Assembly: GCA_963514005.1 (NCBI GenBank)
Contig: OY740795.1
Location: forward strand, 50,654,001-50,718,000
From: Raja brachyura
Taxonomy: Eukaryota
Direction: 5' to 3'
DNA: 64,000 nucleotides
Made by a program: the position numbers and the translations under genes. Shown one piece after another: positions 4,635 to 61,458 of this stretch. Positions within the stretch are counted from its first letter, which is position 1. The number at the start of each line of letters is the position of its first letter. The notes beneath the pieces are model-generated. The model did not search any database. It saw only the letters and a program-made list of their open reading frames with translations, and was not told the origin of the DNA.

Positions 4635-5265
4635 TGCCCTCCCTGGGCACTTTCCCTTGCAACCGCAAGAGATGCTACACTTGTCGCTTCACCTCCCCCC
4701 TTGACTCCATTCAAGGACCCGAGCAGTCGTTCCAGGTGCGGCAGAGGTTCACCTGCAACTCCTCCAACCTCATCTATTGCATCCGCTGCTCTAGATGTCA
4801 GCTGATATACATCGGTGAGACCTAGCGTGGGCTTGCCGATCGTTTCGCCGAACACCTCCGCTCGGTCCGCATTAGCCAACCTGATCTCCCGGTGGCTCAG
4901 CACTTAAACTCCCCCTCCCATTCGGAATCCGAACTTTCTGTCCTGGGCCTCCTCCATGACCAGAGTGAGCACCACCGGAAATTGGCGGAACAGCACCTCA
5001 TATTCCGCTTGGGCAGTCTGCACCCTAGCGGCATAAACATTGACTTCTCCAATTTCCAGTAGCCCTTGCTGTCTCCTCCCCTTCCCAGCTCTCCCTCAGT
5101 CGGGCTCCTCCTCTTACTTTCTCCTTTCTTCTCCCCCCCCCCCCCCCCCCCCCGCCCCCACCCTACATCAGTCTGAAGAATGGTTTTGGCCCGAAACGTT
5201 GCCTATTTCCTTAGCTCCATAGATGCTGCTGCACCCGCTGAGTTTCTCCAGCACTTTTGTCTACC
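4635..5265 (+). mobile_element. 5'-truncated Penelope-like element (GIY-YIG remnant plus pLTR)
   Basis: Encodes GTFPCNRKRCYTC...NLIYCIRCSRCQLIYIGET (stop follows); 12-bp TSD TGCAGGCAGAAG at 4623-4634 and 5266-5277, inside a CR1 3' tail. Confidence 0.9.
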
Positions 5266-5832
5266 TGCAGGCAGAAGGGATTAGTTTAACTTGACCTCAT
5301 GTTCAACACAGACATTGTGGGCCAAAGGGCCTGATTGCCTGCTGTATATTTTTTATGTTTTATGTTCTAAATATAATGATTAACTGCAAAAGATAGAATC
5401 CAAAATATTAAATGCATTAGTGTTATTCAAAGTTTTCTTAACATGGTAGCTTTTTCAACCGAAGGAAGAAAAATCTAACTAAAAACTGACATAGGGAATT
5501 AAGGCTGAAGCTTTCACCTGCCTGTGTATCTCTTTGATTTTGAGGTAAATTATGGAATAGCGATGAGAATGGCATGTCTACATCACTGCTGTCATTATGA
5601 TGCTCCTCCGAGATATTTTTTAAGTAGAAGGGAATAAAAATGTAAAAATAGAAGCTGTGGGAAAACTGAACAGTAAGGAATTGAATTAATTTTCCTGTAC
5701 TTGCATTAGCTTAAATGCAGTTGGCCTAGAAATTCGATTTCTGAACACGTTTTATGCTAAATGCGGTTGGGTACTCAGTATGCCAAGAGTTTGCCTTTGA
5801 TCCCTGAGTATTTGGGTCACATGCATATAGTA

Positions 5833-6135
5833 GCAAGGTGGTGCAGGTAGTTGAGCTGCTTCCCATTAGAGACCCAGGTTCAATCCTGACCTTGGGTGTT
5901 GCCTGTGTGGAGCCTGTATATTCTCCCTGTGACTGCATGGGCATCTGGTTTCCTTCCACATCCCATTGGTAGGTTAATTGGCCCATGTAAATTGTCGCTC
6001 GTGTATAGCGGAGCGATGGAATCTGGGTGCAGTTGATGGGAATGTGAAGACAATCAATATAATAAAATTAATATTGAATTATTGCACAATGGGTGACTGA
6101 TGGTCAGTGTAGTCTGTTTCCATGCCGTATATTTT
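5833..6135 (+). mobile_element. tRNA-derived V-SINE (HE1-like)
   Basis: A box-like GGTGGTGCAGG, B box GGTTCAATCC, V-domain-like GTGGAG...TTCTCCCTGTGACTGCATGG...TTTCCTTCCACA, CR1-type tail. Confidence 0.75.
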
Positions 6136-6138
6136 AGC

Positions 6139-6437
6139 TAAGAGATACAGCGCAGAAACAGGCCCTTTGGCCCACGGAGTCCGCGCCAACCAGCGATCCC
6201 TGCACATTAACTCTATCTTACACACACTAGGTACAATTTACATTTATGCCATGCCAATCAACCTACAAACCTGTACGTCTTTGTAGTGTGGGAGGAAATT
6301 GAAGCTCTCGGAGAAAACCCATGCAGGTCACGGGGAGAACGTACAAACTCCGTACGGAAAGGACCCACAGTCAGGATCGAACCCAGGTCTCTGGCGCTGT
6401 GAGGCAGCAGCTTTACCGCTGTGCCATCGTGCCTCCC
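6139..6437 (-). mobile_element. tRNA-derived V-SINE (HE1-like), tail-to-tail with the preceding copy
   Basis: Reverse strand GGCACGATGGCACAGCGGTAAAGC...GGTTCGATCC...GGAGTTTGTACGTTCTCCCCGTGACCTGCATGGG. Confidence 0.85.
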
Positions 6438-6523
6438 TCAGTTACTAATCCTGTGACATTGAGGTCTTCAGGAATGGCTGTGATGTAGAACAATATGGAA
6501 TACATATTTTGGCACACTTAATC

Positions 6524-7555
6524 TAGGTATGTTACAAGACGTATCTTTACCGGCGCTGCACTTCTGCCGCTCCCCGTGTGCGTGACTTTCGCGCCTTGCA
6601 GAGGGGGGCGGGCTTAAAGTGCCGTTTTTCAACAGGCAGGACAAATCGATCAATGTCGGGCGATTTGGTTGCTGAAGAAAAATCGCTCCGACATTTCATG
6701 AATGGTGGTATTTTTAAATTACTCTACATTATTTATTGACTAGAGTAATTTAAAAATCACCTTCAAAAGCCGTGAGCGCAGACAACCGGAAGCATTTTCC
6801 GTAGGGGAGAAAAAAAGGTAAATACTTTATTTTTATATTAAAAGTTGGTTTTTCGGGAGGCATTAATAATATTTTTATGTTGCGAAATGGGGTCCCCAAA
6901 AAATGTATGAACCCCCAGTATTTTTCCCCCCGACTTCACCGCTAACCGCAACGTTCCAATCCACCGCATTCCACTAAAACCCACTCGCTAGTTGATTTAA
7001 ATGGCCATTAATTTACAGGCATAAAACACTAAATTCCTTCCATTTGGCCCAGAAATTCATGAAAATTAGATTTAAAAATTATGTTATATTGTGGATTATT
7101 GTGTGAATGTTATTTGGACACTTAGGCAATTTAAAAAAAGTTTATCTTTTAAGAAATTGATAGATGTTTAGATCTACTCATTGAATTTTGTAATTAGCTA
7201 CAATTAGATAACTAACTAATTATATGCTTTAATTTCAGGTAATCCAAGTAAGATTGTTTAATATTTGTTTCAGAATGCTTCAATCTATAATAACTGAAAA
7301 TTTCATTGAGTTCTCTTAATTTTTAAGAATGTTATGGACTTTTAACTGTTCCAGATCACAGCTTTTGAGTTAAGTCAATTGAAAGGCAATGGGAAGCAAG
7401 ATGCTCATTTCCGAGTATGAAAATGGCCATAACTTTCTTAATACTGAAGATATGAAAGTAAATTAGGTGTCAAATTAAACTTCTTTTTATGCTTTATCTG
7501 ATGGGATAAATTGCAGACTTGATTTTTAAAATCTCAAAATTTTGTAACATTGCTA
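6524..7555. mobile_element. Non-autonomous DNA transposon (TAG...CTA ends, hAT-like), 7-bp TSD
   Basis: Ends TAGGTATGTTACAA / TTGTAACATTGCTA; CTTAATC at 6517-6523 and 7556-7562; body shared with 19530-20473 and the right part of 36805-38327. Confidence 0.8.
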
Positions 7556-8862
7556 CTTAATCAAATGTGTTCAATATGAATCACTTCAACTGATATTAAG
7601 AAATAGCTGAAAGAGCTGGAGACTTGACAATATCCCAGCTGTAGCACTGAAAATCTGTGGACCAGAACTAAATGTAATTTTAGCCAAACTATTCCATTGT
7701 GATTACAACACTGTGACCTGCCTGATAGTATGGAAAACTGCTTAGTTACGTCTTATCTCAATAAGTGGGATAAATCCAATCCAACTAATGCCACCCAATA
7801 AGTCTAGGCTCAATTATCAGCAATGGAATAGAAGGAGTCATTGACAGTAATATTAATGAGCACCCAGTCAATATTAAGCATACTTCCAAGAAGGAAATCA
7901 GAAGGGAAAAAATGAGGAAGGACATAGCTCTGGCAGATAAGATTAAGGAGAATCCAAAGATATTTTATGTACATCATGGGTGAGAGTGACGGAAGAATAG
8001 ACCCTCTCAGAAACCAAAGTGGTTATGTATGTGTTGAGCTATAGGATATTGGCAAGGTCCTAAATGAGTATTTCTCCTCTGTTTTGGCCGTGGACATGAA
8101 GACTGGGGGATTTTGGACAGATAATGCAGATGTCTTTAGGACAGTTCATGTTGTGGTCAAGGAAGTACAAGATGTACTAAGGCGTATGAAGTTAGATAAC
8201 TCTCCTGGGCCTGGTCAGATACATCTGAGGACACTGTAGGAAGCAAGATTAAAAATTGCAGGAAACCTGGCAGAGATATATGATTCATCATTAAAGACAG
8301 ATGCCAGATGACCAGAGAGTGGCTACTGTTGTTCCTTTATTTAAGAAGGGAAACAGGGAAAAGCCTGGGAACTATAACTTACCATATGTAGCAGGTAAGT
8401 TACTGGAGATAATGTTGAGAGATAAGATATATATATACAGTTGGATAGACAGGAGGATGATTATGGATAGTCAGCATGGTTTTGTACATGGGAGATCATG
8501 TCTCATGAATTTGCTTGAGTTTTTGAAGAAGTAACCAAGAAGGTTGATGAGACCATGCCCGTAGACTTTGTCTTCTTGGACTTCAGAAAGGTATTTTGTA
8601 AGGTACCACATGGTAGACTGTTCTGGAAGGTTAGACTGCATACTATCCAGGAAGAGATAGCTGACTGGATCTAGAGTTATCTTCATGAAAGGAAGCAGAA
8701 GATGGTGAAGGAAAATTGTTTCTCATTCTGGGGGCTTATGACTTGTGGCTTTCCTCAGGGATCATTGCTGAGCCCACTGCTGTTTATGATTTATATCAAT
8801 GGTTTGGATAAGGATGTACAAGGCATTAATGGTATGGTTTCACATGACACTAAAGTAGGTGG

Positions 8863-9071
8863 TGTAGCAGCCTAGATGAGGTCAGGAAAAGACCAGACGC
8901 TAGGTAGGTTTAAACAGTAGTCATTTAATCCCTACAGTGAGAGCACACCACACCAACTGCCAGCACACACCCAGGGGTGGTCAGGAAACCCCGTGGCAGA
9001 CCAACGCCCCTGTCACTCAATCGGTGAGGGGGATGATCCAAGGAGTGGCCTACCCCCCCGGGTCCGCCACA
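8863..9071 (-). repeat. Gypsy 3' LTR (~209 bp)
   Basis: Minus strand starts TGTGGC and ends GCTACA; preceded by a G7 polypurine tract (CCCCCCC at ~9075-9081 on +); ATTAAA polyA signal near 8925. Confidence 0.8.
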
Positions 9072-9523: not shown

Positions 9524-10767
9524 TCACAGAACGTCCAAAGGCTGCTCCACCTGGCCCTGTGCCGGCGGGATGAACTCCCCGGGGACCGTCAACGGAGAGC
9601 CATACACCAACCCGGCGGAGGAGGAGGACAAGTGTTTGTTCGGTGCAGTGTGGATCCCCAGAAAAACCCACGGCAAGGCGTCCACCCAGTCCGGATCATT
9701 GAGCCGTGCCTTCAGGGCGTCCTTGAGCTGACGGTGAAACCGCTCCACCAGGCCGTTCGCCTGCGGATGATACACCGTCGTGTGGTGTAGCCGAACACCC
9801 AGGAGGCATGCCATGGCCGACCACAGTTCCGAGTTCCAGTCGGATGTTATGTCCAGTGGCACTCCAAACCGGGCGATCCAATGAGCTACCAAGGCCCGAG
9901 CATAAGTGGCCATTGAAGAGTCTGGTAGCGGAATGGCTTCAGGCCACCTCGTGAAGCGGTCGACAACGGTGAGTAGATAGGTCAAGCCCCGGGACGGCGG
10001 CAGCGGCCCCACGATGTCCACGTGAATGTGGTCAAACTGCTGCCAAGGGATGGTGAACTCCTGCAACAGCGCGCGCACGTGTCGTTGCACCTTGGCAGTC
10101 TGGCATGGGGTGCAAGTGCGCGCCCAATGTCCAACCTCCTTCTGCAGCCCGTGCCACATGAAGCGGGAGGCTACCAGGGCCGTTGTCGCCCGGATGGAGG
10201 GATGCGCGAGCCCGTGGAGCACCTCAAACACCCCGCGCCGCCAGGTGATGGGGTCGAAGGGTCGCGGAACTCCAGTGGAGACATCGCACAGCAGCGTTAT
10301 GCCCCCAGGACCGCAGACAACGTCCTGCAACTGCAGGCCAGAAACTGCCGTACGATATCTCTTCGTCGACAAGCTGAGCGGCTGCCAGGGCGGTATAATT
10401 AATCCCCTCAGCGACCTGGAGAACCGCGTGGACTGCAGGTCTCGATAAGGCGTCGGCCACCCCATTGAATTTGCCCTCCACGAAACCGATGGATGTGGTG
10501 TATTTGGACACATTCGCCAAATGCCTCTGCTACCGGGCAGACCACGGGTCTGAAACCTTGGCGAACGCAAAGGTTAGCGGTTTGTGGTCTGTATATGCGG
10601 TAAACAGCCTCCCCTCCAGGAAGTAGCGGAAATGGCGTACGGCGAGATACAGGACCAGGAGCTCGCGGTCGAAAGTGCTGTAACGGCGCTGAGCACCACT
10701 GAAGAAGGCGAGTGGCCGCCACCATCCGTCAACGAGCTGCTCCAACACTGCCCCATCCGCTACCTCA
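9524..10767 (-). pseudogene. Gypsy pol remnant (RNase H-integrase), frameshifted
   Basis: ORFs 10530..10799, 10224..10520 and 9524..10570 carry consecutive pol blocks in different frames. Confidence 0.9.
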
Positions 10768-13545: not shown

Positions 13546-13784
13546 TAACCTGGCCCTGGAACATCACTTCACTGTTTGTCAGGGCAGTGTCCTAGGCTCA
13601 ACTAGCTTCATCATAAGTCCTGCATGCAGAAAAGACCAAGACAATATTCAGGCAACGGTCCATTAACATCAAGTAATATTTTCACCACAATAGTTCCAAG
13701 TGATGACCACTTACAACAAGCAGGATTTGTTAGAAATCATGACATTACAAATGCTATGTTGTCTATCATTGAAATATTGTGAAT

Positions 13785-14005
13785 ATAGACACGTATATAT
13801 TGTGAATGCCGGGGTAACTCAGCAGGACAGGCAGCATCTCTGGAGAGAAGGAATGGGTGATGTTTCGGGTCGAGACTGGAGAAGGGTCTCGACCCGAAAC
13901 ATCACCCATTCCTTCCATACAGAGCTGCTGTCTGTCCTGCTGACTTACTCCAGCCTTTGTGTCTATCTTCAGTGTAAACCAGCATCTGCAGTTCCTTCCC
14001 ACACA
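13785..14005. mobile_element. Inverted (head-to-head) PLE pLTR dimer
   Basis: GTAACTCAGCAGGACAGGCAGCATCTCTGGAGAGAAGGAATGGGTGATGTTTCGGGTCGAGAC is followed by its near reverse complement plus the 3' tail; imperfect TSD GAAATATTG(T/G)G(A/T)AT. Confidence 0.8.
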
Positions 14006-14438: not shown

Positions 14439-14560
14439 CAGAAGAAGGGTCTCGACCCGAAACGTCACCCATTCCTTCCCTCCAAAGATGCTTCCTGTCC
14501 CGCTGAATTACTCCAACATTTTGTGTCTACCTTCGATTTGGAGCATCATCTGCAGTTCTT
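14439..14560 (+). mobile_element. Solo PLE pLTR inside an ancient L2/CR1 remnant (~13550-14720)
   Basis: GAAGAAGGGTCTCGACCCGAAACGTCACCCATTCC...GCATCATCTGCAGTTCTT. Confidence 0.8.
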
Positions 14561-18333: not shown

Positions 18334-18491
18334 TGTTTAAGAAGGAACTGCAGATGCTGGAAAATCGAAGGTAGACAAAAATACTGGAGAAACTCATTCT
18401 GAAGAAGGGTTTCGACCCGAAACGTTGCCTATTTCCTTCGCTCCATAGATGCTGCCTCACCAGCTGAGGTTCTCCTTCATTTTTGTCTACC
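18334..18491. mobile_element. Inverted PLE pLTR dimer with intact hammerhead core
   Basis: Antisense tail AAGAAGGAACTGCAGATGCTGG...GAGAAACTCA joined to sense CTGAAGAAGGGTTTCGACCCGAAACGTTGCC...TTTGTCTACC. Confidence 0.8.
18399..18426 (+). ncRNA. Minimal hammerhead ribozyme motif
   Basis: CUGAAGA-A-GGGU(UUCG)ACCC-GAAA-CG-UU: both conserved core boxes, stem II with a UUCG loop, palindromic ACGU helix III. Confidence 0.7.
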
Positions 18492-19527: not shown

Positions 19528-19529
19528 AG

Positions 19530-24149: not shown

Positions 24150-24451
24150 TCCCTCCCCCACCCAAGTTGTTGCACTAGCATCAGTCATATTGTGGAGTCT
24201 CATTGTCCATAACACTTTTTCACTTAGGCAACAGCTAACAATAGCCAGTTTCCTATATCATCATTACTTTTTTGCATATCTTTCATTCATTTGTTCTATA
24301 TCTCTCTATATCACCGTCTATGTCTGTCATTTCCCTTTCCCCTCTCAGTCTGAAGAGGAGTCTTCACCCGAAACTTCACCTATTCCTTCTCTCCAGAGAT
24401 GCTGTCTAACCCGCTGAGTTACTCCAGCTTTTTATGTCAATCTTAGGTTTA
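24150..24451 (+). mobile_element. PLE 3' UTR/pLTR split by a CR1 (tail resumes 27398-27430)
   Basis: TTTTTGCATATCTTTCATTCATT...CAGTCTGAAGAGG...CCCGAAAC...TCTTAGGTTTA | GTTTAAACCAACACCTGCAGTTCCTTCC. Confidence 0.75.
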
Positions 24452-32014: not shown

Positions 32015-32136
32015 GGCAAAAATGCTGGAGTAACTCAGCGGGTGAGGCAGCATCTATGGAGCGAAGGAAATAGGCAACGTTTCGGGCTGAAACCCTTCTT
32101 CAGACTTTTCTTCAAAAACCATTTCTTCAGAAGAAG
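32015..32136 (-). mobile_element. Solo PLE pLTR with hammerhead core (32076-32103)
   Basis: Minus strand CTGAAGAAGGGTTTCAGCCCGAAACGTTGCC; 16-bp TSD AAATCTGGATTTGGTA (31999-32014, 32137-32152). Confidence 0.85.
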
Positions 32137-38327: not shown

Positions 38328-40709
38328 TCCAATCAGGTAGATGGGAGTAACGACTTAATTCTAGCTGACGAGAGGACTGCTCTGTTGCCTGTTAACAGCT
38401 GGGAAAAATGTGTCCTGGGACAAAGCTTCCATATAAATACACTTTAAAACTGAAATATATAATGTCATTAACCACTTTTCTTCTCATCTATCACTTTCCA
38501 CTCTGTAAGCATGGACAAGTGGGCATTTTGCCAGATTTGTAGCATCAATTAACTGGTTAACAGGAAGTGCAAGAGCAAGGTGATTCACCTTCTAATTTTT
38601 TTCTTCATCTCTTGGGGAGGATCTTTGCCTGTGCTTGGCACTTACCAGATGGCAACCCAGATTTTACCAAGTGATGAATTACAGAACAAAACTGCATTGC
38701 AACATTATATTGCAAAGCAGCCTAATTACTAATGCCTTGCCACATAACCTACTTAAATAAAATATTTTCCGTATGCAGGAATAGACTCTGTATTCTGTAC
38801 CTTTTCAATGTATTCCATAAGTCAATGGGACCTTAATGTCTTGTCAATGATGCAAAACATACAGTTGATGCGTTCTTCCCCACTGTGGAATCATTTTCAG
38901 AGGTTCCCAATCAGCATAATTTCATTTTAAAATTATTGGATGCATTAAACCCAGTTTATATTTCACTAACAATATGCAAAATCAACTCGTATTCCATGTG
39001 TCAACAAATTGCAAAAGACATTTTGGAAGGTTGTATATTTCCCTGTATTTCCCTCCACACTGACAATTAGTTCCAGGTGCTATTTACTCAGATTATACAA
39101 ATGGAAACACAAATAGTTCATGAAGCAAATCTGCCGGATTTATTACCTCTATAAAGGGAGATAACAAAAAAATAATAATCGTCCTTTCTCACTGAAAAAA
39201 TCTGCTTTCCGTTTTATTTGTATCTGGTGCAACCGGATCCAAAAATATGTTGCAAAAGACCAGGGATGGCGGTGGTCAGCATCATTGTCCAATGCCCACA
39301 TATGTGGATCTACCAGTGACTTTTAATCAGCCTGTGACTTCCTACATCATTGCTGTGCTTCCTGGTACATGAGCCTGAGCAGTGAAACTCATACATGCAA
39401 TGCTGGCAATCTCTCCATGTTGAAAATGTTTAAGAGGGATATAGTCAAACTCAAGCAAGTGGAACAAGCTGAGGTGGACATCTTGGCCAGTATGGACAAG
39501 TTGGGCTGAAGGGCCTGCTTCCACACTGTATCACTCTATGACTCTATGACATTGAAGACTATAAACTCTTGCAGGGAGGAATCCAACAGTAAAATAATTA
39601 AGATGTGGTGGGAGGTTTCCTACGATATTTGCAATAGGAGCCCAGCGGTCTACTTTGTTGATTCAATAATGAGAGAACCTTAATGGACTCAACACAGCAG
39701 AAATGGCAAGTGCATTGGCACAATCAACACAATCGACCTCAAACCTGAGCTGAAACTCAAGCTCAGTTTAATGGGATCCATTTAAACTGGCAGTTCCAGT
39801 CAAAGTGTGCCAGGCTGGCTCATTATAAATTAATGCACCAGATGCAGCACTTTATTTTGAGCTTGGCTATTCAACTCTAGCCCGACATGCTTAAGCAGTT
39901 TGGGAAACAAAAAGAAATTTAAAATTCTTGTCCTGAATTTAAGCTGATTTAATATAAGTGTGGTCATCTCAGATTCATGCTGGGTTTTACCTCTAATTTG
40001 ACCTCTAATTCCAACCCACTCAAATTGAGCCTCTTAAAATCCAGCCCGGCAGCTCTCTCATCCCTCAAAGTTGGCTTGGAGGTACACCCAATAATTCCTG
40101 TCGATCCACCATCTATTCCCATCTAATTGACAATGGCACTCAGATTCATTTTGCCTATGCCTCGGGCTTATACTTATCCACAACAAATGCTCGTCTTTCT
40201 GCTGTATTTGACACATCCCCTCAGTCACAGGAGAAAGGACCACAGAACACCTGGGAAAGATGGACAACCAGAAATGGCCATTGAGACATTTCACAATTCG
40301 GTTCAACGTGTTTTGCTAGCAGCAACTCAATATTATGACCTTTCGAGATTAAGAGATGGCTGCCTCCCAGCTACCATTAAAAAAAATCAGTCATACAGGA
40401 TACAATGCTCACTCTGCATAATCACCCCTTACATTTTCTTTTGAACTGGACAGTTCAAAATTAATGTGTAAGAAGGAACTGCAGACATTAATTTAAACAG
40501 AAGATAGACAACAAATGCTGGAGTAACTCAGTGGGACAGGCAGCATTTCTGGAGAGAAGGAATGGGTGACGTTTTGGGTCGAGACCCTTCTTCAGACTGG
40601 TTAGAGATAAGGGAAACGAGAGATATAGACGGTGATGTGGAGACATAAAGAACAATGAATGAAAGATATGCAAAAAAGTAACGATGGTAAAGGAAACAGG
40701 CCATTGTAA

Positions 40710-41764: not shown

Positions 41765-41892
41765 GTGGGGAAGAACTGCAGATGCTGGTTTGAATAGAAG
41801 ATAGACACAAAATGCTGGAGTAACTCAGCGGGACAGGCAGCATCTCTGGAGAGAAGGAATGGGTGACGTTTCGGGTCGAGAACCTTCATCTG
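41765..41892 (-). mobile_element. Solo PLE pLTR
   Basis: GAACTGCAGATGCTGG...GGAATGGGTGACGTTTCGGGTCGAG. Confidence 0.8.
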
Positions 41893-42394: not shown

Positions 42395-43010
42395 AGAAGG
42401 AACTGCAGAAGCTGGTTTACACCGAATATAGACACAAAGTGCTGGAATAGCTCAGCGGGACGGACAGCATCTCTAGATAGAAGAAATGGGTGACGTTTTG
42501 TGTCAAGACCCTTCTTCAGACGGAGTCAGGGGAGAGGGAGACACAGAGATATGGAAGGGTAAGGTGTGAAAATGAGACATCAAAGGAGATGCATTCGGGG
42601 AAAATGTAGATTTGCAACATTGTTAGCAAGGAGATAGCGACAACGAAGGTTACAGAAATAAAATGTAATCGGGGGACAGTCAGACTGGTTGGAGGACTAG
42701 GAAGGGGGAGGGATGGAGCGGGAAGGAAAGCAAGTTAGAGAAGTCAATATTCAAACCGCTGGGGTGTAAGATGCCCAAGCGAAATATGAGGAGCTGTTCC
42801 TCCAATTTGCGCTGGGCCTCAATCTGACAGTGGAGGAGGCCCAGGACAGAGAGGTCAAGGAATGGGAGGGAGAGTTAGAGTGTTTGGCAACTGTGAAATC
42901 AGGTGGGTTTAGGCGGACTAAGCGGAGGTGTTCCGCAAAATGATCGGCCAGCCTGCTCTTGGTCTCGGCGATATATAGGAGTCCACACCTGGACCAGCGG
43001 ATACAGTCGG
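42395..43010 (-). mobile_element. PLE 3' end (GIY-YIG remnant plus pLTR)
   Basis: ORF 42751..43047 CIRWSRCGLLYIAETKSRLADHFAEHLR; pLTR at 42395-42520. Confidence 0.85.
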
Positions 43011-43292
43011 TGCACTTGCTGATTGGATCGATCAGAGCTCCATCCAAAAGAATGCAACATTAGGAGTGCTGGTGTGGATTGGATTGATCAGAGCTCTACA
43101 GTGCAGACCATTAGTACAGCTGTCCAAATTGTATAATTGTCAAAGTAACTTCTCAGTGCAGGAACTGCAAACAAAGTCTTCAGAGGGAGGGTGTTAAAGA
43201 AGGAACTGCAGATGCTGGAGAATCGAGGGTTACACAAAAGGCTGGAGAAACTCAGCGGGTGCAGCAGCATCTAAGGAGCGAAGGAGATAGGC

Positions 43293-43320
43293 GACGTTTC
43301 GGGTCGAGACCCTTCTTCAG
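43293..43320 (-). ncRNA. Minimal hammerhead ribozyme motif
   Basis: CUGAAGA-A-GGGU(CUCG)ACCC-GAAA-CG-UC with a GUC cleavage triplet. Confidence 0.7.
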
Positions 43321-43619
43321 ACCCTTATTTTTGGTATGGGTTGCTCCTCTGGTCGAGGAAGTACCGGAGGGCTTTGAGACCATCCTGGTGGGGGATGCAG
43401 GTGTATAGTGACTGGACGTCCATGGTGAAGATGAGAGGATGGGGGCCTGGACAACGGAATGTGTGGAGCCGACGGAGAGTGTCTGAGGTGTCTTGAACAT
43501 AGGTGGGGAGGGATTTAACAAAGGGGGATAGGATGGAGTCAAAGTATGTGGAAATGTGTTCGGTGGGGCACGAACAGGCAGAGACAATGGGTCTGCCGGG
43601 GCAGTCGGGTTTGTGGATT

Positions 43620-43723
43620 CACGAACAGGCAGAGACAATGGGTCTCACGAACAGGCAGAGACAATGGGTCTCACGAACAGGCAGAGACAATGGGTCTCAC
43701 GAACAGGCAGAGACAATGGGTCT
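43620..43723. repeat. 4 x 26-bp perfect tandem repeat copied from 43569-43594
   Basis: CACGAACAGGCAGAGACAATGGGTCT at 43620, 43646, 43672 and 43698; identical source copy inside the RT at 43569. Confidence 0.95.
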
Positions 43724-43824: not shown

Positions 43825-45170
43825 TCCGTGAAACTCCAGACATCCATGAACCCATCTGTAAGCTGCAAAAACCATGATCATGTCTTTGTGATTGACTGAT
43901 TATCCCTTTGAAATTGGTTATCGCACCTCTCCCAAAAGGATTAAATGAAGGCAATCTAATCCACTGCCGTTAAGTGTGGAACCCTGCACGCTGGGCTCAG
44001 ATCCCCGACATGTCTTCAACTACATGAGAGTCATCCCTTCCCAGACTCTCCCAAACCGATGCCCTCCGAAACATTGAAATTCAGCACGTTTCATTTCAAT
44101 CAATTTTGATAAATGCACTAGGGGGCTCTCCAGCAGTTCGTCAGTCACACAATCATCTCAAAGTCATAATCTCTTGACTTGCAGGACCTGGAGATAATTA
44201 TATTTGTGGCATGAAATATTATCATTTCCTCTGCTTAGCTAACAAAAAATGCTGCAAATGTGATCCATGGCATTTCATGTGCATCCTGTTTGTCAAATTG
44301 TCATTCATGATCAATAACTCCAATAAACGAGTTAAAAGTGTGAGCTGATGCTTTGCCAATAAACACATTAGCATTTTTCTACACTTTGCATTGGGTAAGT
44401 GAATCGCTCATTGAAATCACCAGTCTGCTATATTAGTGGCTTACTGCACTACAATCCCTGAGAAATGGCTCTTTAATCTCACATTTCATTCTCAACTTCT
44501 TGTAATGAATTCCATGCACCAGACATTGTGCAAAACCATTTGCATGGTTTTAGGTTTTCTACAATGCATGATGGTAATCATCTACAATCGCTGAATAAGT
44601 AACATTTCTTTCCTGATTCTAAATCAATAAAATGAGATTCATTCTTTACCATTTTAGAGTCTCAGTCTTACACTGGGAAAATGCAAGTTGACTTCTATTC
44701 TCAATAAGCTATGGAGGGCTTTGTCATATTCAAGCATTTCAATGACATAAAACCTGCTGCATATCACTGACGACCAGATACTTCAAAGATGCAAACTTCA
44801 AGCAAGCGCTTCCTGACGTGCTGTCAGAAGGATTTTATAATTTCAGCAAAGAGACAAAGTGCTAACATCATACCGCAGAAGATCTTCAGATGATAATTGA
44901 TTTCAAAAATGAACAACCGTTTGTCCTCAAATTCCTTCGAATTAAAATCCAATGTCTGAAAGTGATTCAGGGTGCAGTTAAGAAAGTTGGTAAGTCAGCC
45001 AAGGTGTTGCACATCCACTTCACAGACATAGTCTCTGATACATTGGCACTAAAATACCAGTCACTTGGATCAATGCCAACTGAGGCTTGCCAGAGATTAG
45101 CTTCCGAACAGCTACTGGGCAACTGAGGAATGGAACAAATATCTTGCTATCCTCATCACAGCCATCACAA

Positions 45171-45911
45171 ATGTCCCTGTTCTTCAGAGAACGGGGTTTC
45201 CCCTCCCCCACTATAGGTGAGGCTCGCACCAGGGTCTCCTCCATACCCCGCAACACTGCCCTCTCTCCCCATTCCCCCACTCATAACAAGGGCCGAGTCC
45301 CCCTGGTCCTCACCTTTCACCCCACCAGCCAGCGCATACAACAGATAGTCCTCCGCCAGTTTCGCCACCTCCAGCGTGACCCCTCCACTCGCCACATCTT
45401 CCCATCTCCCCCCCTGTCTGCCTTCCGCAAAGACCGCTCCCTCCGCAACTCCCTTGTCAATTCTTCCCTTCCCTCCCTCTCCACCCCTTCCCCGGGCACT
45501 TTCCCTTGCAACCGCAAGAGATGCTACACTTGTCCCTTCACCTCCCCCATCCACTCCTTTCAGGGACCCAAGCAGTCGTTCCAGGTCCGACAGAGGTTCA
45601 CCTGCACCTCCTCCAACCTCATCTACTGCATCCGTTGCTCCAGATGCCAGCTGATCTACGTTGGTGAGACCAAGCGGAGGCTGGGCGATCGTTTCGCCGA
45701 ACACCTCCGCTCGGTCCGCAATAACCAACCCGACCTCCCGGTGGCTCAGCACTTCAACTCCCCCTCCCATTCCGTATCCGACCTCTCGGTCCTGGGCCTC
45801 CTCCACGGCCAGAGTGAGCAACACCGTAAGTTGGAGGAACAGCACCTCATATTCCGCTTGGGGAGTCTGCATCCTCTGGGCTTAAACATTGAATTTTCTC
45901 AATTCTGTTAA
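45171..45911 (+). CDS. PLE C-terminal region: linker, Cys-rich motif and GIY-YIG endonuclease (246 aa from first ATG; 5'-truncated transposon ORF)
   Basis: Uninterrupted frame inside ORF 45087..45911; the track's N-terminal ~22 codons are host flank. Confidence 0.7.
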   Translation: MSLFFRERGFPSPTIGEARTRVSSIPRNTALSPHSPTHNKGRVPLVLTFHPTSQRIQQIVLRQFRHLQRDPSTRHIFPSPPLSAFRKDRSLRNSLVNSSLPSLSTPSPGTFPCNRKRCYTCPFTSPIHSFQGPKQSFQVRQRFTCTSSNLIYCIRCSRCQLIYVGETKRRLGDRFAEHLRSVRNNQPDLPVAQHFNSPSHSVSDLSVLGLLHGQSEQHRKLEEQHLIFRLGSLHPLGLNIEFSQFC

Positions 45912-46151
45912 CCCAGACTGCCTCCTCCCCCTCCCCACCTCTCCCTCAGCCCTCGGGCCCTGACATTCCTTCTCCATCGCCCCCCCCCCCCCCCCCCCCA
46001 AGTCACACTAGCTTCTCATTTTCACACCACAAACAGCTTACAATGCCCTGTTTCCTTTATCATCAATACTTTTTTGCATATCTTTCATTCATTGTTCTTT
46101 ATCTCTCCACATCACTGTCTATATCTCTCGTTTCCCTGATACCTGACCAGT

Positions 46152-46179
46152 CTGAAGAAGGGTCTCGACCTGAAACGTC
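46152..46179 (+). ncRNA. Minimal hammerhead ribozyme motif in PLE pLTR
   Basis: CUGAAGA-A-GGGU(CUCG)ACCU-GAAA-CG-UC, about 240 nt downstream of the GIY-YIG stop. Confidence 0.65.
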
Positions 46180-46334
46180 GCCTATCTCCTTCGCTCCTTA
46201 GATGCTGCTGCACCTGCTGAGTTTCTCCAGCTTTTTGTGTAACCCTCTTGCTATCCTTGTGCAGTCAAGTCTTTAGATAGAAAATCACCCAAATTACCAT
46301 AAACAATTAGCACAATCTGCGCATTATTTCTAGA

Positions 46335-47838: not shown

Positions 47839-47925
47839 GGTAGACACAAAATGCTGGAGTAAGTCAATGGGTGAGGCAGCATCTATGGAGAGAAGGAATT
47901 GGCAACGTTTCGGGCCGAGACCCTT
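47839..47925 (-). mobile_element. Solo truncated PLE pLTR
   Basis: 14-bp TSD CTTCCTATTTCCTT (47825-47838, 47926-47939). Confidence 0.85.
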
Positions 47926-48200: not shown

Positions 48201-48229
48201 CTTCTGTGATGAAGGTGACAGAGAGCTGA

Positions 48230-51480: not shown

Positions 51481-51761
51481 GAACAACATCTGCAACTTTC
51501 CATCTTCCAGAGAGGGAATCTGGTGAAGCCTCTGATTGGTTGAAGAGGACCAGAGGAAGCAGCTGATTGGGTGCAACCCGGGGTCTACATTTTTACATTT
51601 CTGCCTTCAGGTTTATCGATTCTGGGAGTTAAGGATTCTGGGAGTTAAGGATTCAGTATTTATTAGTAAAGTTTAAAGGATAAAGTTTTGTGTTTAATAA
51701 AAAAGTAAATTAAAAAAATATATATATATATATTTAATACAGAGTAATTTGGGAGTAAGAT

Positions 51762-52709: not shown

Positions 52710-55597
52710 TGTGGCAGGGGGATGGGTACAAGAGCAGAGAGGCAGGTGGGTGTAAAACGAGGGTAGAAGCAATAGGAAGCAAGTTGAAAACCAGGGCAAA
52801 AATCAAAAAGGGCCATTTCTCAACATAATTGTATAAGGTGTAAGAGTGTTGTGAAAACAAGCCTGAAGGCTTTGTGTCTCAATGCAAGGAGTATTCGCAA
52901 TAAGGTGGATGAGTTGAATGTGCAGATAGCTATTAATGAGTATGATATAGTTGGGATCACTCCAGGGTGATTGAGGTGATTGAGACATGGCTCCAGGGTG
53001 ACCAAGGCTGGGAGCTGAACATCCAGGGATATTCAATATTCAGGAGGGATAGAGAGAAAGTAAAAGGAGGTGGGGTAGCGTTCCTGGTTAGAGAGGAGAT
53101 TAACGCAATGGAAAGGAAGGACATTAGCTTGGAGCATGTGGAATCGGTATGGGTAGAGCTGTAAAACACTAAGGGGCAGAAAACGCTAGTGGGAGTTGTG
53201 TACAGGCCACCTAACAGTAGTAGTGAAGTTGGGGATGGAATCAAACAGGAAATTAGAAATGCGTGCGACAAAGGCAAAACAGTTATAATGGGTGACTTCA
53301 ATCTACATATAGATTGGGTGAATCAAATTGGCAGGGGCGCTGAGGAAGAGGATTTTTTGGAATGTATGCGGGATAGTTATCTAAATCAACATGTAGAGGA
53401 ACTAATGAGAGAGCAGACTATTTTAGACTGGGTATTGAGTAATGAGGAAGGGTTAGTTAGCAGTCTGGTTGTGCGTGCCCCCTTGGGCAAGAGTGACCAT
53501 AATATGGTCGAGTTCTTCATTAGGATGGAGAGTGACATTGTTAATTCAGAAACAAATCAGAAACAATGCAATAGAAGACATTTAAAGACTGCATGGATGA
53601 ACTACAAAAATTGTTCATCCCAGTTTGGCAAAAGAATAAATCAGGGAAGGTAGTGCATCCATGGATAACAAGGAGAATCAGGGATAGTATCAAAGCAAAG
53701 GATGATGCATACAAAGTAGCCAGAAAAAGCAGCATACCAGAGGACTGGGAGAAATTCAAAGACCAGCAGAGGAGGACAAAGGGCTTGATTAGGAAAGGAA
53801 AAATAGATTATGAAAGAAAACTGGCAGGGAACATAAAAACTGACTGCAAAAGTTTTTATAGATATGTGAAGAGAAAGAGATTAGTTAAAACAAATGTAGG
53901 TCCCTTGCAGTCAGAAACAGGTGAGTTAATCATGGGGAACAAGGATATGGCGGACCAATTGAATAACTACTTTGGTTCCGTCTTCACTAAGGAAGACATA
54001 AATAATCTGCTGGAAATAGCAGGGGACCGCGGGTCAAAGGAGGACTTGAGTGAAATCCAGGTTAGTCGGGAGGTGGTGTTGGGTAAATTGAGTGGATTAA
54101 AGGCCAATAAATCCCTAGGGCCAGATAGGTTGCATCCCAGAGTACTTAAGGAAGTAGCTCCGGAAATAGTGGATGCATTAGTGATAATCTTTCAAAACTC
54201 TTTAGATTCTGGAGTAGTTCCTGAGGATTAGCGGGTAGCAAACGTAACCCCTCTTTTTAAGAAGGGAGGGAGAGAGAAAAAGGGGAATTACAGACCAGTT
54301 AGTCTAACATCGGTAGTGGGGAAACTGCTAGAGTCAGTTATTAAAGATGGGATAGCAGCACATTTGGAAAGTGGTGAAATCATTGGACAAAGTCAGCATG
54401 GATTTACGAAAGGTACATCATGTCTGACGAATCGTGGGGAATTTTTCAAGGATGTAACTAGTAGCATGGATAGGGGAGAACCAGTGGATGTGGTGTATCT
54501 GGACTTCCAGAAGGCTTTCGACAAGGTCCCACACAAGAGATTAGTATATAAACTTAAAGCATACGGCATTGGGGGTTCAGTATTGATGTGGATAGAGAAC
54601 TGGCTGGCAAACAGGAAGCAAAGAGCAGGAGTCAACGGGTTGTTTTCACAATGGCAGGCAGTGACTAGTGGGGTACCGCAAGGCTCAGTGCTGGGACCCC
54701 AGCTATTTACAATATACATTAATGATCTGGATGAGGGAATTGAAGGCAATATTTCCAAGTTTGCGGATGACACTAAGCTGGGGGGCAGTGTTAGCTGTGA
54801 GGAGGGTGCTAGGAGGCTGCAAGGTGAATTGGATAGGCTGGGTGAGTGGGCAAATGTTTGGCAGATGCAGTGTAATGTGGATAAATGTGAGGTTATCCAC
54901 TTTGGTGGCAAAAATAGGAAAGCAGACTATTATCTATATGGTGGCCGATTAGGAAAAGGGGAGATGCAGCGCGACCTGGGTGTCATGGTACACCAGTCAT
55001 TGAAAGTAGGCATGCAGGTGCAGCAGGCAGTGAATAAAGTGAATGGTATGTTAGCTTCATATCAAAAGGATTTGAGTATAGGAGCAGGGAGGTTCTACTT
55101 CAGTTGTATAGGGTCTTGGTGAGACCACACCTGGAGTATTGTGCGCAGTTCTGGTCTCCAAATCTGAGGAAGGACATTATTGCCATAGAGGGAGCGCAGA
55201 GAAGGTTCACCAGACTGATTCCTGTGATGTCAGGACTGTCTTATGAACAAAGACTGCATAGACTCGGTTTATACTCTCTAGAATTTAGGAGATTGAGAGG
55301 GGATCTTATAAAACTTACAAAATTCTTAAGGGGTTGGACAGGCTAGATGCAGGAAGATTGTTCCCGATGTTGGGGAGGCCCAGGACAAGGGGTCACAGCT
55401 TAAGGATAAGGGGGAAGTCCTTTAGGACCGATATGAGAAGGACTTTTTTCACACAGAGAGTGGTGGGTCTTTGGAACTCTCTGCCACAGAGGGTAGTTGA
55501 GGCCAGTTCATTGGCTATATTTAAGAGGGAGTTAGATGTGGCCCTTGTGGCTAAGGGGATCAGAGGGTATGGAGAGAAGGCAGGTACGGGATACTGA
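52709..55597 (+). pseudogene. CR1 ORF2 (APE endonuclease plus reverse transcriptase), disrupted
   Basis: ORF pieces 52967, 53189, 53593, 54316, 55104 and 55334 give consecutive EN and RT motifs. Confidence 0.95.
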
Positions 55598-56517: not shown

Positions 56518-56664
56518 GGATAGAAGGAATGGGTGACATTTTGGGTTTGAAACCCGAAGCATCACCCATTCCTTCTTACCAGTGAGGTTACCTGTCCAGC
56601 TGAGTTACTCCAGCATTTTGGGTCTATCTTCGGTGTAAACCAGCATCTGCAGTTCCTTCCTACC
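56518..56664. mobile_element. Short inverted PLE pLTR dimer
   Basis: GGAATGGGTGACATTTTGGGTTTGAAACCCGAAGCATCACCCATTCC; TSD ACATTAACACT (56507-56517, 56665-56675). Confidence 0.8.
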
Positions 56665-56714
56665 ACATTAACACTCTGAAGCCTCTGTCAGACACCTTTA
56701 AACAATTTAGAGGC

Positions 56715-56908
56715 ATGGAAGGGTAAGTTTTCACATCTTACCCTTCCATGTGCCTAGAGTGCCTCTCGCCTGACTCTCAGTCTGAAGAAAGGTCTCAACC
56801 CAAAACGTCACCTATTTCTTCTCTCCAGAGATGTTACTGATCCTAACTGTCTCAGCATTTTGTGTCTATCTTCGTTGTAAACCAGTATCTGCAGTTCCTT
56901 CCTACACC
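56715..56908 (+). mobile_element. PLE pLTR
   Basis: CTCTCAGTCTGAAGAAAGGTCTCAACCCAAAACGTCACC...CTGCAGTTCCTTCCTACAC. Confidence 0.75.
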
Positions 56909-57704: not shown

Positions 57705-58660
57705 CAAGGTATCATGGAAACTTTATTGTCATTCAGACCTTTCGGTGTGAACAAAATGTTGTTGCCTGCAGTCATACATATAGTAAATAACAAAACACAC
57801 AATAAACACATATTTAACATCCACCACAGTGAGTTCATCAGACACCTCCTCACTGTGATGGAAAGCAAAATCTTAAGTCTTTGTCTCTTCCCTCCTTGTT
57901 CTTCCTCTGCGCTGAGGCGATCCAGGCCTCCGATGTTGTGACCCCACCGGGTGATGTAAGTAAGTCCCGCGGCTGAACCGTGCTCCGCGAATGGGCCGGT
58001 TCAACTCCGTGGCCCGGGGCGGTCGAAGTTGCCGCCCTCCAGTCCAGCGGACGCAGCTGTTGCCGCGGGAGCTCCGATAAAACAGGTCACCAACCTGTGA
58101 CCTGCGAGCTCCCGATGATGTCGTCCACTGGGCCCGTGGCCGAACCTCCAATGTCGCTGCCGCCGCCACTGGAAAGCCAACACAGCTCTGAGTCAGGCCG
58201 CCGGAACGCCTGAATACCTGAACCTGCTGCAGCCCCGAAGTTGGCCAGCCTCTCGCCGTTAAGAAGAAGGGTTTCAGCCCGAAACGTTGCCTATCTCCTT
58301 CGCTCCTTAGATGCTGCTGCACCCGCTGAGTTTCTCCAGCCTTTTGTGTACCCTCACGCTGGTAAGTCCTGGCTGGCTCTGCCTCTGGAGCCTCGAGGTC
58401 GATTGCAGTTGGAGGCTGCCAGCTCCGCCATTAGGCCTCAGCGCAGATGGAGATGGAGACGGAGACGGAGACGGGGGATACGACAAGAAAAGTCGCGTCC
58501 CCCGGAAGGAAGAGACTAAAACGTTTCTCCCACCCCTTCCACACACATACACAACATAATAACTCAAATTAACATGCTAAAACAGGACAAGAAAACAAAA
58601 AAAAAGAAAAAAACAGACGGACTGCAGGCGAGCCGCAGCTGCCAAGGCAGCGACGCCACT
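57705..58660 (-). mobile_element. GC-rich non-autonomous retroposon containing a pLTR insertion (58264-58351)
   Basis: CTTTATTGTCA tail, shared hairpin at 57820-57862, GC-rich 5' end GGCGTCGCTGCCTTGGCAGCTGCGG. Confidence 0.55.
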
Positions 58661-58750
58661 CCAATATGTTGGACTGATAATACCTCTCAGGCTTATGGAG
58701 GTTGCTTTGCAGCAGGGTTGGCCTGATGAAATCTGCAAATCAACAGAGTA

Positions 58751-58966
58751 GATAGACACAAAATGCTGGAGTAACTCAGGGGGACTGGCAGCATCTCTGG
58801 AGAGAAGGAATGGGTGACCATTTGGGTCAAGACCCTTTCAGAGTGAAGGTCTCGACCCGAAACGTCACGCATTCCTCTTCAGAGATGCAGGCTGCCCCGC
58901 TGACTTACTGCAGCAATGTGTGTCCATCTTTGGTGTAAAACAGAATCTGCAGTTCCTTCCTACACA
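58751..58966. mobile_element. Inverted PLE pLTR dimer
   Basis: GATAGACACAAAATGCTGGAGTAACTCAG...GACCC | AAGGTCTCGACCCGAAACGTCAC...CTGCAGTTCCTTCCTACAC; ACAGAGTA on both flanks. Confidence 0.8.
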
Positions 58967-59365
58967 GATAGACAGAGTATGCAGTTTGTGGGCAGCTGAT
59001 GGAATCATTCAGCACCTTGTGAATTCTGCTATTATGGAAAACCTGCAATGAGGGCTGGAACTCTAGCAATCCATCTACTTGGAGCTCTAGAATCATCATT
59101 GCAACATGCTGAGCAAAGGTTGGAAGTTTGGGTCAATTCATGGTTCAGTGCCTGCAAAACGGAAAGCAGAAAATGGCACATTTTAAGGTTCAGGCAATGA
59201 ATCAATGACCTTGATGTTTAACTCTGCTCAACTCTCTTCAGATACTGCCTGATCTGTTGAGTATCCCTAGCATTTTCTGCTGGTGACATAGCAATTCTGC
59301 TTATCATGCTCTTGGCTTAGAAGATAAATGGTACAACATTTAGTGCAAGATAAAGTCCAATGAAG

Positions 59366-59608
59366 ATAGACACTAAAAGCTGGAGTAACTCAATGGGTCA
59401 AATAGCATATCTGGAGAAAAGGATAAGGTGACGTTTCAGGTCGAGCGCTGTCTTCAGTCTGGAGTCTGAAGAATGTCTGAAGTCTGAAGCAGGGACTCGA
59501 CATGAAATGTCACCTATTCCTTTTCTCCAGAAATGCTGTCTGACCCGCTGAGTTACTCCGGCATTGTGTGCCTATCTTTGGTTTAAACCAGCATCTGCAG
59601 TTCCTCCC
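59366..59608. mobile_element. Inverted PLE pLTR dimer
   Basis: 15-bp TSD TAAAGTCCAATGAAG (59351-59365, 59609-59623); centre has a reiterated GTCTG(A/G)AG. Confidence 0.85.
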
Positions 59609-60282
59609 TAAAGTCCAATGAAGTCCAAGTAAAGATATTTCTTCCTAGTTCGAAGATGATTGAATCTTAATTTTTCATCACTTGATGTCCATGTTGTAGA
59701 GAAACTCCATTTTGCTAGTATGTTTTTTTCTCATATAACTAATGTTTTCATCTAACATTGATGAAATGACTCAACACTTGAAGAGGTTCTTACTAACCAC
59801 AAAGCATAAACATTGACATATTAAGGATAGCTCTGCCAAATTGTGTTGACATTTTTTGGGAGCATGGTAGACAGGGAAATATCTATGGTTGTATACTGGT
59901 TACAATTAGGCATTTCAGTGGTTCAGAAAATAGGATTATTATTATAAATAAGTGTGCATAGTATTGCAGGTAATTGGTGACATCGGTCAATAGTTGGTTT
60001 GTTAGTAAGAGAGGGAGAGATTATAAATAAAAGGATTGTTCTCTGATTACTAGGAGGTTATACGCGGTGATCCACAGATGTCAGCGCTGAATCCCCATCT
60101 TATTAACTTTGATAAAGAAATGGAAAAGTTTATATCCAGTCTGCAGATGACTCCAAATTGGGAGGTACAATTGCTTTGTTGAATAAGGGAAAGTGAGTTA
60201 ATCTTTTCTCTAAATCAGGTAAGGCCTGAATTTAATACCACTCCCCTTCCCTCAAAACAGGCACACTCAATCAACTGCACTC

Positions 60283-61115
60283 ACAAGGAAAGGAAAGATG
60301 CCGGTTTATACCGAAGTGGACACAAAGTGCTGAATAACTCATTGGGTTGGGCAGCATCTATGGAGATAAAGGATGGGTGATATTTCGGGTCAGGCCCTTC
60401 TTCAGACCAAAAGTAGAGAGGAGGGAACTGGAGGTAAGAAAAGTGCGCAACAAAGCAGGGATGGTAACAGATGATCAAGGAATGGTAAAGCCCACAATGG
60501 TCCATTGTTGGCTGTGGAAGAGGTGATTATGAAGGGATGCAAGGATGTGACAGCAGAACCACTAGGACAACTAGGGTGGGGAGGGAAGGATAGAGGGAAT
60601 GCAAGGGTTACTTGAAATTAGAGAATTTCGTAAGCTGGGACGTAAGCTGCCCAAGTAATATATGAGGTGCTGCTCCTCCAATTAGCACATGACCTCACTC
60701 TGAGAGGGGAGGAGGCCCAAGACAGGAAGGACATGGGAAGGGGAATTAAAATATCTGACAACCGGGAGATCAGGTAGGCCAAGGCGGACTGAGCATTCAG
60801 AGAATGATTGCGTGGTCTGTGTTTGGTCTCACTGATACATAGGAGCCCAGATCTATAAAGCACCTGATATAACACCTTTCCTTTTACGTCATTTCATTCT
60901 AGGCTGCAGGAACCAGACATACTATTTCCAGGTGCAGCAGCAATTCATTTGTACTTCTTCCAATTTACTGTACTGTATTTGGTGCTCATTATGTCTATAT
61001 TTGGCTCCGTAGTCAAATGAAGCCATTGTCAGATCAAATAATGGCACCTCATGTTCTACCTAGGCATGTTGCAGCCCATGGAACTCAATAAAAAATTCAA
61101 CAATTTGAGATAACC
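60283..61115. mobile_element. PLE remnants: minus-strand pLTR plus GIY-YIG (60283-60870) abutting an older plus-strand GIY-YIG remnant (~60900-61115)
   Basis: GLLCISETKHR on minus; TTCCAGGTGCAGCAGCAATTCATTTGTACTTCTTCCAAT (FQV.Q.F.CTSSN) on plus. Confidence 0.7.
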
Positions 61116-61327
61116 AGCCTCTTATGTAATTTCCCACATTGACCATGGAGAAGAAAGTCATGTAGGATTTGTAGGAGTTCCAGTGGAAGCAGAACATTGT
61201 AATAGCCAGACCCAGTAGTCAACCATCAAGACTTAGATACAGTAGCTGTAGAAAGTATAATGACCTGAAGGGACAGGGTCAGGAGATTCATCTAGAATTG
61301 CCTCATCCCACCAGACAACTAGTCTTC

Positions 61328-61458
61328 ATCTGAAGAAGGCTCTCGACCCGAAACATCACCCATTCCTTCTAACCAAGGATGCTGCCTGTCCCGCTGAATG
61401 ACTCCAGCTTTTGTGTCTGTCGTCAGTTTAAACCAGCATCTGCACTTCCTTCCTACAC
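61328..61458 (+). mobile_element. Solo PLE pLTR
   Basis: CTGAAGAAGGCTCTCGACCCGAAACATCACCCATTCC...CAGCATCTGCACTTCCTTCCTACAC. Confidence 0.8.

Follow-up and report, generated by a model that had tools for sequence, protein, structure and literature searches.

The stretch analyzed here (hereafter the window) comprises 64,000 bp of the genome of the skate Raja brachyura (contig OY740795.1, positions 50,654,001 to 50,718,000) and carries numerous copies of a short repeat that contains a minimal type I hammerhead ribozyme motif, in which the palindrome reads ACGU and A9 is followed by an additional base. A preceding examination of the same sequence (the original prediction) listed 15 cores of this motif, each of which was found at the given place and on the given strand, and attributed the short copies to a retrozyme-like non-autonomous family. 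In our assessment, the repeat is the hammerhead-plus-tail end of the pseudo-long terminal repeat (pLTR) of a young Penelope-like element, probably of Neptune type, and its short copies (hereafter stubs) are likely, instead, run-off complementary DNAs (cDNAs) that stop at the capped 5' end of the uncut RNA of this element.

Positions within the repeat are counted from the first base of CUGA, which is numbered 0; the predicted cut falls between +27 and +28. A descriptor of the minimal hammerhead (CUGAnGA, an optional extra base, stem II of at least 4 bp, GAAA, palindromic SS, and UH) has four matches in the window (18399+, 32103-, 43320-, and 46152+), exactly the four cores that had been called intact or near-intact. 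In a sample of 464 kb from the same genome (the window and 40 stretches of 10 kb), there are 18 matches compared with none in each of 20 dinucleotide shuffles, and 67,496 exact cores were counted across the whole 2.7-Gb genome, with no match to the reversed pattern. The hammerhead search that had been proposed as a check thus succeeded with the descriptor but not with Rfam, where no hammerhead family match was found at E<=10; a microRNA match at 13850 in the same scan was rejected because it is a head-to-head pair of units. A profile built on the ~95-bp unit, with reversed sequence as the control, detected 26 units in the window, 186 in the 464 kb, and none in the control; at least nine units in the window are additional to the earlier list, including 47930-, 58262+, 58840-/58845+, 56550, and 62186-. 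In 300 kb taken from arbitrary places on 15 contigs, there are 120 units, that is, one per 2.5 kb, which extrapolates to ~1.1 million units in the genome; accordingly, the earlier estimate of one per 3-4 kb somewhat understates the density of units but approximately holds for that of insertion events.

The copies in the window are listed in Table 1. They had been described in part as solo insertions within target-site duplications (TSDs). TSDs of 9-17 bp do surround insertions of 84-275 bp and longer ones, but the units at 13876, 18399, and 59484 belong to head-to-head pairs, and the one at 43320 is joined to other element sequence within a single TSD, a composite that, from its sequence, can be read as a template jump after run-off. 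GIY-YIG-coding sequence does lie upstream of the cores at 5173, 42493, 46152, and 60381.

Table 1. Hammerhead-bearing copies in the window (RT stands for reverse transcriptase, ORF for open reading frame, and UTR for untranslated region)
Positions	Strand	Feature	TSD and remarks
4635..5265	+	older 5'-truncated element, GIY-YIG end, degenerate core (5173)	12-bp TSD at 4623-4634 and 5266-5277
13780..14003	.	224-bp head-to-head pair, tail on + arm only	13-bp TSD (1 mismatch)
14439..14560	+	tailed unit from core onward	TSD not recovered
18334..18491	.	head-to-head pair: short tailed inverted arm and tail-less arm from core	TSD degenerate, 12/15 (by eye)
18399..18426	+	intact minimal hammerhead core, GUU site	inversion junction has removed upstream strand of helix I
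24230..24437	+	copy truncated in 3' UTR, degenerate core (24350)	
32015..32136	-	122-bp solo unit, stuttered core fragments at 5' end	16-bp TSD
32076..32103	-	intact minimal hammerhead core, GUU site	U.G closes stem II
40512..40709	-	copy truncated in 3' UTR	dead core (G12 to A)
41765..41892	-	tailed unit, degenerate core (41866)	TSD not recovered
42395..43005	-	older GIY-YIG end, 3' UTR, degenerate core (42493), tail	
43192..43719	-	single insertion: ~400 bp of RT-coding DNA joined to tailed unit	16-bp TSD; RT-coding part holds 25-bp stutter; unit begins 2 nt before core
43293..43320	-	intact minimal hammerhead core, young subfamily, GUC site	
45154..46245	+	young 5'-truncated Penelope-like element: thumb/linker/GIY-YIG ORF end, 3' UTR, hammerhead	12-bp TSD at 45142-45153 and 46246-46257; ORF end 98% to 1,203-aa ORF; 3' end at site 1
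46152..46179	+	near-intact core with G.U as pair 10.1-11.1	initiator-like CCAGTCT just before
47842..47925	-	84-bp solo unit beginning within core	TSD up to 17 bp with microhomology
56518..56661	.	144-bp head-to-head pair, junction in stem II, one arm tailed	TSD ~10-14 bp
56779..56905	+	tailed unit, degenerate core (56782)	
58262..58355	+	young-type unit from 2 nt into core	TSD not recovered
58759..58965	.	207-bp head-to-head pair, one arm tailed	9-bp TSD
59366..59608	.	243-bp head-to-head pair, stuttered junction, one arm tailed	15-bp TSD
60290..60792	-	older GIY-YIG remnant, 3' UTR, degenerate core (60381)	
61329..61461	+	tailed unit, degenerate core (61330)	possible TSD: 11-bp repeat, 61176-61186 and 61462-61472
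62110..62359	-	250-bp copy truncated in 3' UTR, degenerate core	16-bp TSD

A genome search with the GIY-YIG fragment of the window (45165-45908) gave 146,125 candidate matches; identity is 98-100% in the 150 that were scored, and three of these contain an open frame of 1,203 amino acids (aa). Locus L072 has a pLTR-ORF-pLTR organization (a partial tandem) and thereby assigns the motif to the pLTR of a Penelope-like element with GIY-YIG, as originally proposed; L071 and L073 retain shorter upstream pieces, and each of the three is flanked by a TSD of 11-13 bp. The 1,203-aa ORF matches RVT_1 and GIY-YIG, both below the Pfam cut-offs, with DKG and YIDD motifs visible, and contains a CX4CX2C linker which fits the CX2-5CxxC linker between the RT and the endonuclease. 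Linkers of this type mark the Neptune and Nematis clades (PMC8557442), and only Neptune and Poseidon have been reported among the Penelope-like clades of vertebrates (bioRxiv 10.64898/2026.07.22.740005). Judging from these sequence features, the parent is best classified as a young Neptune-type element (Neptune or Nematis by linker). The first ATG is located at +163, 163 nt after the core start, and in L072 (3422-3432) overlaps a splice-donor-like AAG/GTATG. In older subfamilies, the 3' UTRs upstream of the core are barely alignable whereas the core and the next 95 bases align. A partial-tandem pLTR, an inverted arm, a one-sided tail, and a TSD are all present in the family. The literature on Penelope in skates or sharks that we searched contained nothing on it.

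The motif consists of CUGAnGA, GAAA, and UH, with stem II and the G10.1-C11.1 pair; the extra base between positions 9 and 10.1 is A in 94 of 106 units. Positions 15.1-16.1 form the palindrome (ACGU), with departures mostly reflecting CpG decay, such that helix III is available only in a dimer. Helix I is short (2 bp), as had been noted; a longer helix I was considered and rejected, position 2.3-1.3 being mostly A x C. Among the 107 of the 186 sampled units that cover the core (units chosen partly on the core), the majority base exceeds 85% at all 11 non-CpG core positions compared with 39 of 57 downstream positions, the other 18 falling below (P=0.024). Higher conservation of the core was thus observed in these units. 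Two-sided covariation of stem II, the other sign that had been proposed, was not found within this genome, where changes in stem II and helix I are one-sided: in three lists of 100 mutants each (three pairs), it did not rise above the decay level, the partner base being almost always unchanged, and RNAalifold run on nine tailed copies detected two-sided change in none of 21 pairs and did not predict stem II. Changes between subfamilies preserve pairing through substitution on one side (U-A/U.G at 2.1-1.1 and at the closing pair of stem II), and H17 stays C or U. The predicted energy of the active dimer is -6.7 kcal/mol, ~15 kcal/mol above that of the best dimer fold (-21.8 kcal/mol), which still pairs both ACGU palindromes. 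As far as can be judged from sequence, the hammerhead architecture is real and catalysis is putative.

A somewhat unlikely but serious alternative is that the motif has lost its cutting function in this lineage and persists as a promoter (an initiator plus an ACGT downstream element) and as a protein-binding or dimer-forming RNA. The 2-bp helix I, the gap between the two dimer energies, and the stem II mutants, in which compensated variants are not above the decay level, are all compatible with loss of cutting, as are the ACGT being placed as in the Penelope/LINE (long interspersed nuclear element) element RGACGTGY (PMC2377424) and the report that eight of nine Xenopus dimers remained uncut (bioRxiv 10.64898/2026.07.22.740005). 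Nevertheless, the high conservation of the core and the preservation of pairs and of H17 through subfamily changes weigh against this alternative, the hammerhead of PAc, a Poseidon element of Anolis carolinensis, does cut with protein (PMC11167929), and a slight local excess of copy ends at the cut site (see below) may point in the same direction.

Outside the skate genome, 7 of 16 metagenome matches represent another repeat family (L191-L193, L196, L200, L201, and L205) that, whether homologous to the skate unit or not, has the same minimal core, a different paired stem II, and a 3-bp helix I; three members are inverted just before the core. In assembled contigs of relatives, which show presence only, the unit was detected in four runs, two of them probably DNA.

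To map copy ends, a young sample was compiled from the first 4 Mb of one contig. It includes 90 loci, of which 83 were centered on a motif that lies downstream of the cut and has 51,713 exact matches and 7 on intact cores, and yields 124 arms, or 123 after removal of one duplicate. The 5' ends of these arms pile up immediately before the core: 52 are located at -5..0, 13 at +1..+9, 8 at +10..+27, 3 at the cut site (+28), 4 at +29..+48, and 8 at -40..-6, and the remaining 35 are scattered further upstream over 1.9 kb. In the 29 young arms where a TSD abuts the 5' end, the apparent TSDs span 8-18 bp. Position -3 is the A of (C/T)CAGT, an initiator-like sequence. An extra G precedes the 5' end in 15 of the 37 non-inverted arms that end at -5..+3 (8.2 expected, P=0.007), compared with 3 of 35 long truncations, and in four young arms with a clean TSD, an extra G or GG lies outside the duplication. 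Among the first 100 of 4,573 ends at -3 found genome-wide, a hand count of the preceding base gave G 52, A 38, and T 10 (G expected 27%). Untemplated G in L1 and SVA has been attributed to copying of the cap (PMC9341517, PMC3287187), and Drosophila Penelope has an internal TATA-less promoter (PMC2377424).

At the cut site, by contrast, ends are scarce. Genome-wide, 148 were counted there versus 209 at +31 and 166 at +33; weighted for the allowed flank letters, the numbers are 415, 337, and 327 versus 5,811 at -3, with patterns that differ in length between these positions. Ends at the cut site are hence ~14-fold rarer than those at -3 and 1.2-1.3 times as frequent as their neighbors, so that a pile-up at the cut site, which the 3 of 123 young arms had seemed to suggest, was rejected; a modest surplus of ends at +28, at most about twofold, may exist. 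Inspection of 12 cut-site loci revealed two mutations and two instances of one palindromic junction; control positions also contain mutants. The paucity of ends at the cut site implies that copies are made mostly from uncut RNA.

The pile-up before the core could, in principle, mark a hot spot of joining or stopping rather than an RNA start, caused by a polymerase stop, by a splice acceptor (a pyrimidine tract followed by CAG), or by microhomology within the palindrome TCAG-N-CTGA. Many head-to-head junctions do use this palindrome, 5 of 13 long copies have an AG-free stretch of 98-162 nt ahead of the core, and an intron in D. virilis ends at helix I (PMC4209133). We nevertheless regard this explanation as improbable: the same pile-up is seen in non-inverted copies, together with the extra G; a joint to upstream element sequence at a GT donor is present at none of 105 cores; and no GT..AG joints were found among the 15 listed of 32 contig joints. 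A splice acceptor, in particular, was rejected, the 105 cores including no spliced copy. As a separate observation, the AG-free pyrimidine stretch of 98-162 nt that, in L072 (3140-3262) and in older copies, ends with CAG directly upstream of the core resembles a splice acceptor, and solo-less long copies within introns could trap host exons.

The 3' ends of the 123 young arms fall into two clusters (76 at +87..105 and 44 at +118..140, with 3 elsewhere) that define sites at +94 and +129, 35 nt apart. An 8-bp helix predicted between +48..55 of the unit and +105..112 of the tail encloses the first site, and the second lies just beyond it; this is a candidate protein-binding fold for which covariation was not seen. 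Pairing of units is predominantly inverted. Among neighboring units in the 464 kb, there are 38 head-to-head, 11 tail-to-tail, and 10 tandem pairs, and the genome-wide counts are 6,983 head-to-head versus 428 tandem pairs at tail-less spacing, obtained with different patterns and without a search at the tailed tandem period. In the 26 opposite-facing young pairs (within 2.6 kb), exactly one arm is tailed in 24 (46% expected), neither in two, and both in none; the junctions vary between otherwise identical copies. Identical head-to-head insertions at several places in L155, L159, and G000:C1:3050290-3057579 reflect segmental or tandem duplication and inflate the counts slightly.

An inverted arm and a one-sided tail are already known in Penelope-like elements (PMC3846280, PMC8557442). 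In vitro, PAc initiates reverse transcription from two internal positions bounding the tail, and it cuts and extends both strands; its protein is predicted to form a dimer, its main template is uncut RNA, and cutting by its hammerhead requires the protein (PMC11167929). The pair counts in the skate agree with a single priming event on each strand, the two strands using different sites.

Under the scenario that we favor, an internal promoter would start the RNA at the A of (C/T)CAGT, 3 nt before CUGA, and the element protein would nick the target and prime inside the RNA at +94 or +129, both of which would be present twice in the full transcript. Priming at the 3' copy of these sites would produce ordinary truncated elements, whereas priming at the 5' copy would lead to run-off at the cap after ~97 or 132 nt and so to stubs. 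When both nicked strands are primed, one per site, the two cDNAs would be joined head to head by microhomology. The hammerhead, with helix III formed only in the dimer, would cut rarely and only with help of the protein, and cleavage would not be required for making stub copies. A more speculative extension, which we consider unlikely, is that the hammerhead at the capped RNA start mainly serves to pair two RNAs through ACGU, with a protein dimer priming one RNA per nicked strand (at +94 and +129). If true, this would account jointly for stubs, inverted arm, and one-sided tail in Penelope-like elements and would make cleavage a late or side event.

Several points weigh against the run-off scenario. 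The RNA start is deduced from genomic copies; A is also common before the -3 ends; and the positions for the first G test were picked after the data had been seen, the value given above coming from the weaker, unbiased version. The young sample represents a single contig region, with its seven loci picked for an intact core, and ~6 of the 26 opposite-facing pairs may be unrelated neighbors. The pile-up coincides with the TCAG-N-CTGA palindrome and with a pyrimidine tract ending in CAG, both possible causes of another kind. The shared 62-bp haplotypes described below are compatible with young solo copies being themselves copied, which may have occurred. L072 holds 430 bp upstream of the proposed start, which indicates that longer templates or template jumps also occur, and head-to-head arms have been attributed to self-priming on an antisense template (PMC3846280). 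No paper proposing a run-off or two-strand priming model for Penelope-like elements was found in a search that left most of the subscription literature outside its reach.

The relationship between stubs and ORF-linked copies bears on two further alternatives. In the young sample, stubs outnumber ORF-linked copies 86 to 37, and the three most common 62-bp haplotypes account for 32, 9, and 6 of 74 short and for 19, 3, and 3 of 37 long copies. Two of 105 cores are joined in sense to ORF sequence; the window copy at 43320, where the unit starts from -2 after the RT-coding DNA, is one of them, and such a joint calls for a full transcript. It is conceivable that solo stubs, having retained the promoter and the priming sites, are self-transcribed and copied in trans in the manner of short interspersed nuclear elements (SINEs), without circles or cleavage. 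The unit does contain the initiator-like start and the priming site or sites, and the excess of stubs agrees with such a route; equal haplotype ratios in short and long copies and the two ORF-joined cores do not, and we judge it quite unlikely, although SINE-like copying could add to run-off.

Less probable still, indeed very improbable, is the originally proposed separate non-autonomous retrozyme family spreading by hammerhead-cut, circularised RNA. In animals, retrozymes form tandem repeats with a length of 150-450 bp and are expressed as circles (PMC7229834); they derive from pLTRs and leave monomers (bioRxiv 10.64898/2026.07.22.740005), which, along with the 428 tandem pairs and some short arrays built from units of 40-50 bp, could be taken in favor of this proposal. 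However, tandem pairs are rare next to head-to-head ones, both in the 464 kb and genome-wide; copy ends lie just before the core with a cap-like extra G rather than at the cut site, which fixes no unit length; and short copies carry the same haplotypes as ORF-linked ones, with no solo-specific haplotype in the young subfamily and hence no lineage separate from the autonomous element found there. Arrays of the retrozyme type, in which every 150-450 bp repeat has its own hammerhead, were not found; there are a few hundred short tandems. In the short arrays, the starts coincide at -4/-5 and the 3' ends are ragged, as repeated restarts after run-off would leave them. Mini-arrays of 40-55 bp units, each of which begins at -4/-5 and holds an intact core (L186, L189, L190, G000:C7:43667135, and C5:36842067) are, in their own right, natural tandem hammerheads. 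The retrozyme label should therefore be dropped, although stubs could be raw material for retrozyme arrays, and pipelines that combine tandem repeats with a motif can label copying stutters 'retrozymes'. With run-off copying, ~50,000 young copies would record the RNA start and the sites where copying starts, and for the origin of inverted arms and one-sided tails as well as for the role of the hammerhead, copy ends supply exact testable positions (-3, +28, +94, and +129).

The window also contains other repeats. A Gypsy-type integrase fragment (Pfam rve and an H2C2 zinc finger) is located at 9524-10573 (-), and two long CR1-type LINE remnants with RT and endonuclease frames at 25088-28578 (-) and 51759-55122 (+), the latter with an upstream frame containing a GDSL-esterase domain. 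A frame with a zf-RVT domain at 12128-12703 (+) marks the end of a further LINE. A second short repeat family of ~140 bp or more (46358-46500, 6256-6399, 30762-30903, 47522-47665, and 18658-18778) is probably a SINE, with a tRNA-like start by eye.

The motif and the element that hosts it both belong to kinds already described in the literature. Like the minimal hammerheads of metazoan Penelope-like elements (PMC4209133), the skate motif has the CUGAnGA core, one extra base at 9/10.1, G10.1-C11.1, a palindromic 15.2-16.2, no loop III, and a location in the pLTR, and occurs mostly as dispersed single copies with some opposite-strand pairs. The differences are in dimensions and numbers: stem II and helix I are 7-8 and 4-5 bp in Schistosoma but 4 and 2 bp here (helix I of D. 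virilis is 2 bp as well), 67,496 exact cores compare with 2,000-9,000 motifs in the genomes described there, and the motif is near-invariant in the skate but highly variable in that set, in which the available text names no cartilaginous fish (PMC4209133). With endonuclease-containing Penelope-like elements (PMC8557442, PMC3846280), the parent shares a single ORF with RT and C-terminal GIY-YIG domains, the CX4CX2C linker, a partial tandem pLTR, heavy 5' truncation, TSDs, an inverted 5' arm, and a 30-40 bp tail at one end. Unlike those elements as described, it is represented mostly by stubs of 85-250 bp with a sharp 5' end before the hammerhead; the accessible descriptions in the same two papers include neither a fixed 5' end nor a cap mark.

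A mechanistic parallel is offered by PAc (PMC11167929), which belongs to a different clade: in both, two start sites define the tail and uncut RNA is the template (for the skate, both as deduced above), and there is no sign of ends at the cut site. The PAc ORF, however, begins inside the hammerhead whereas in the skate element the first ATG lies downstream of both sites, which are thus in the 5' UTR. With animal non-LTR (long terminal repeat) retrozymes (PMC7229834, bioRxiv 10.64898/2026.07.22.740005), the skate units share the type I hammerhead, pLTR ancestry, and short non-coding units. They differ in being dispersed or head to head, whereas retrozymes form tandems and circles with mostly canonical hammerheads, and in sharing alleles with the autonomous element.

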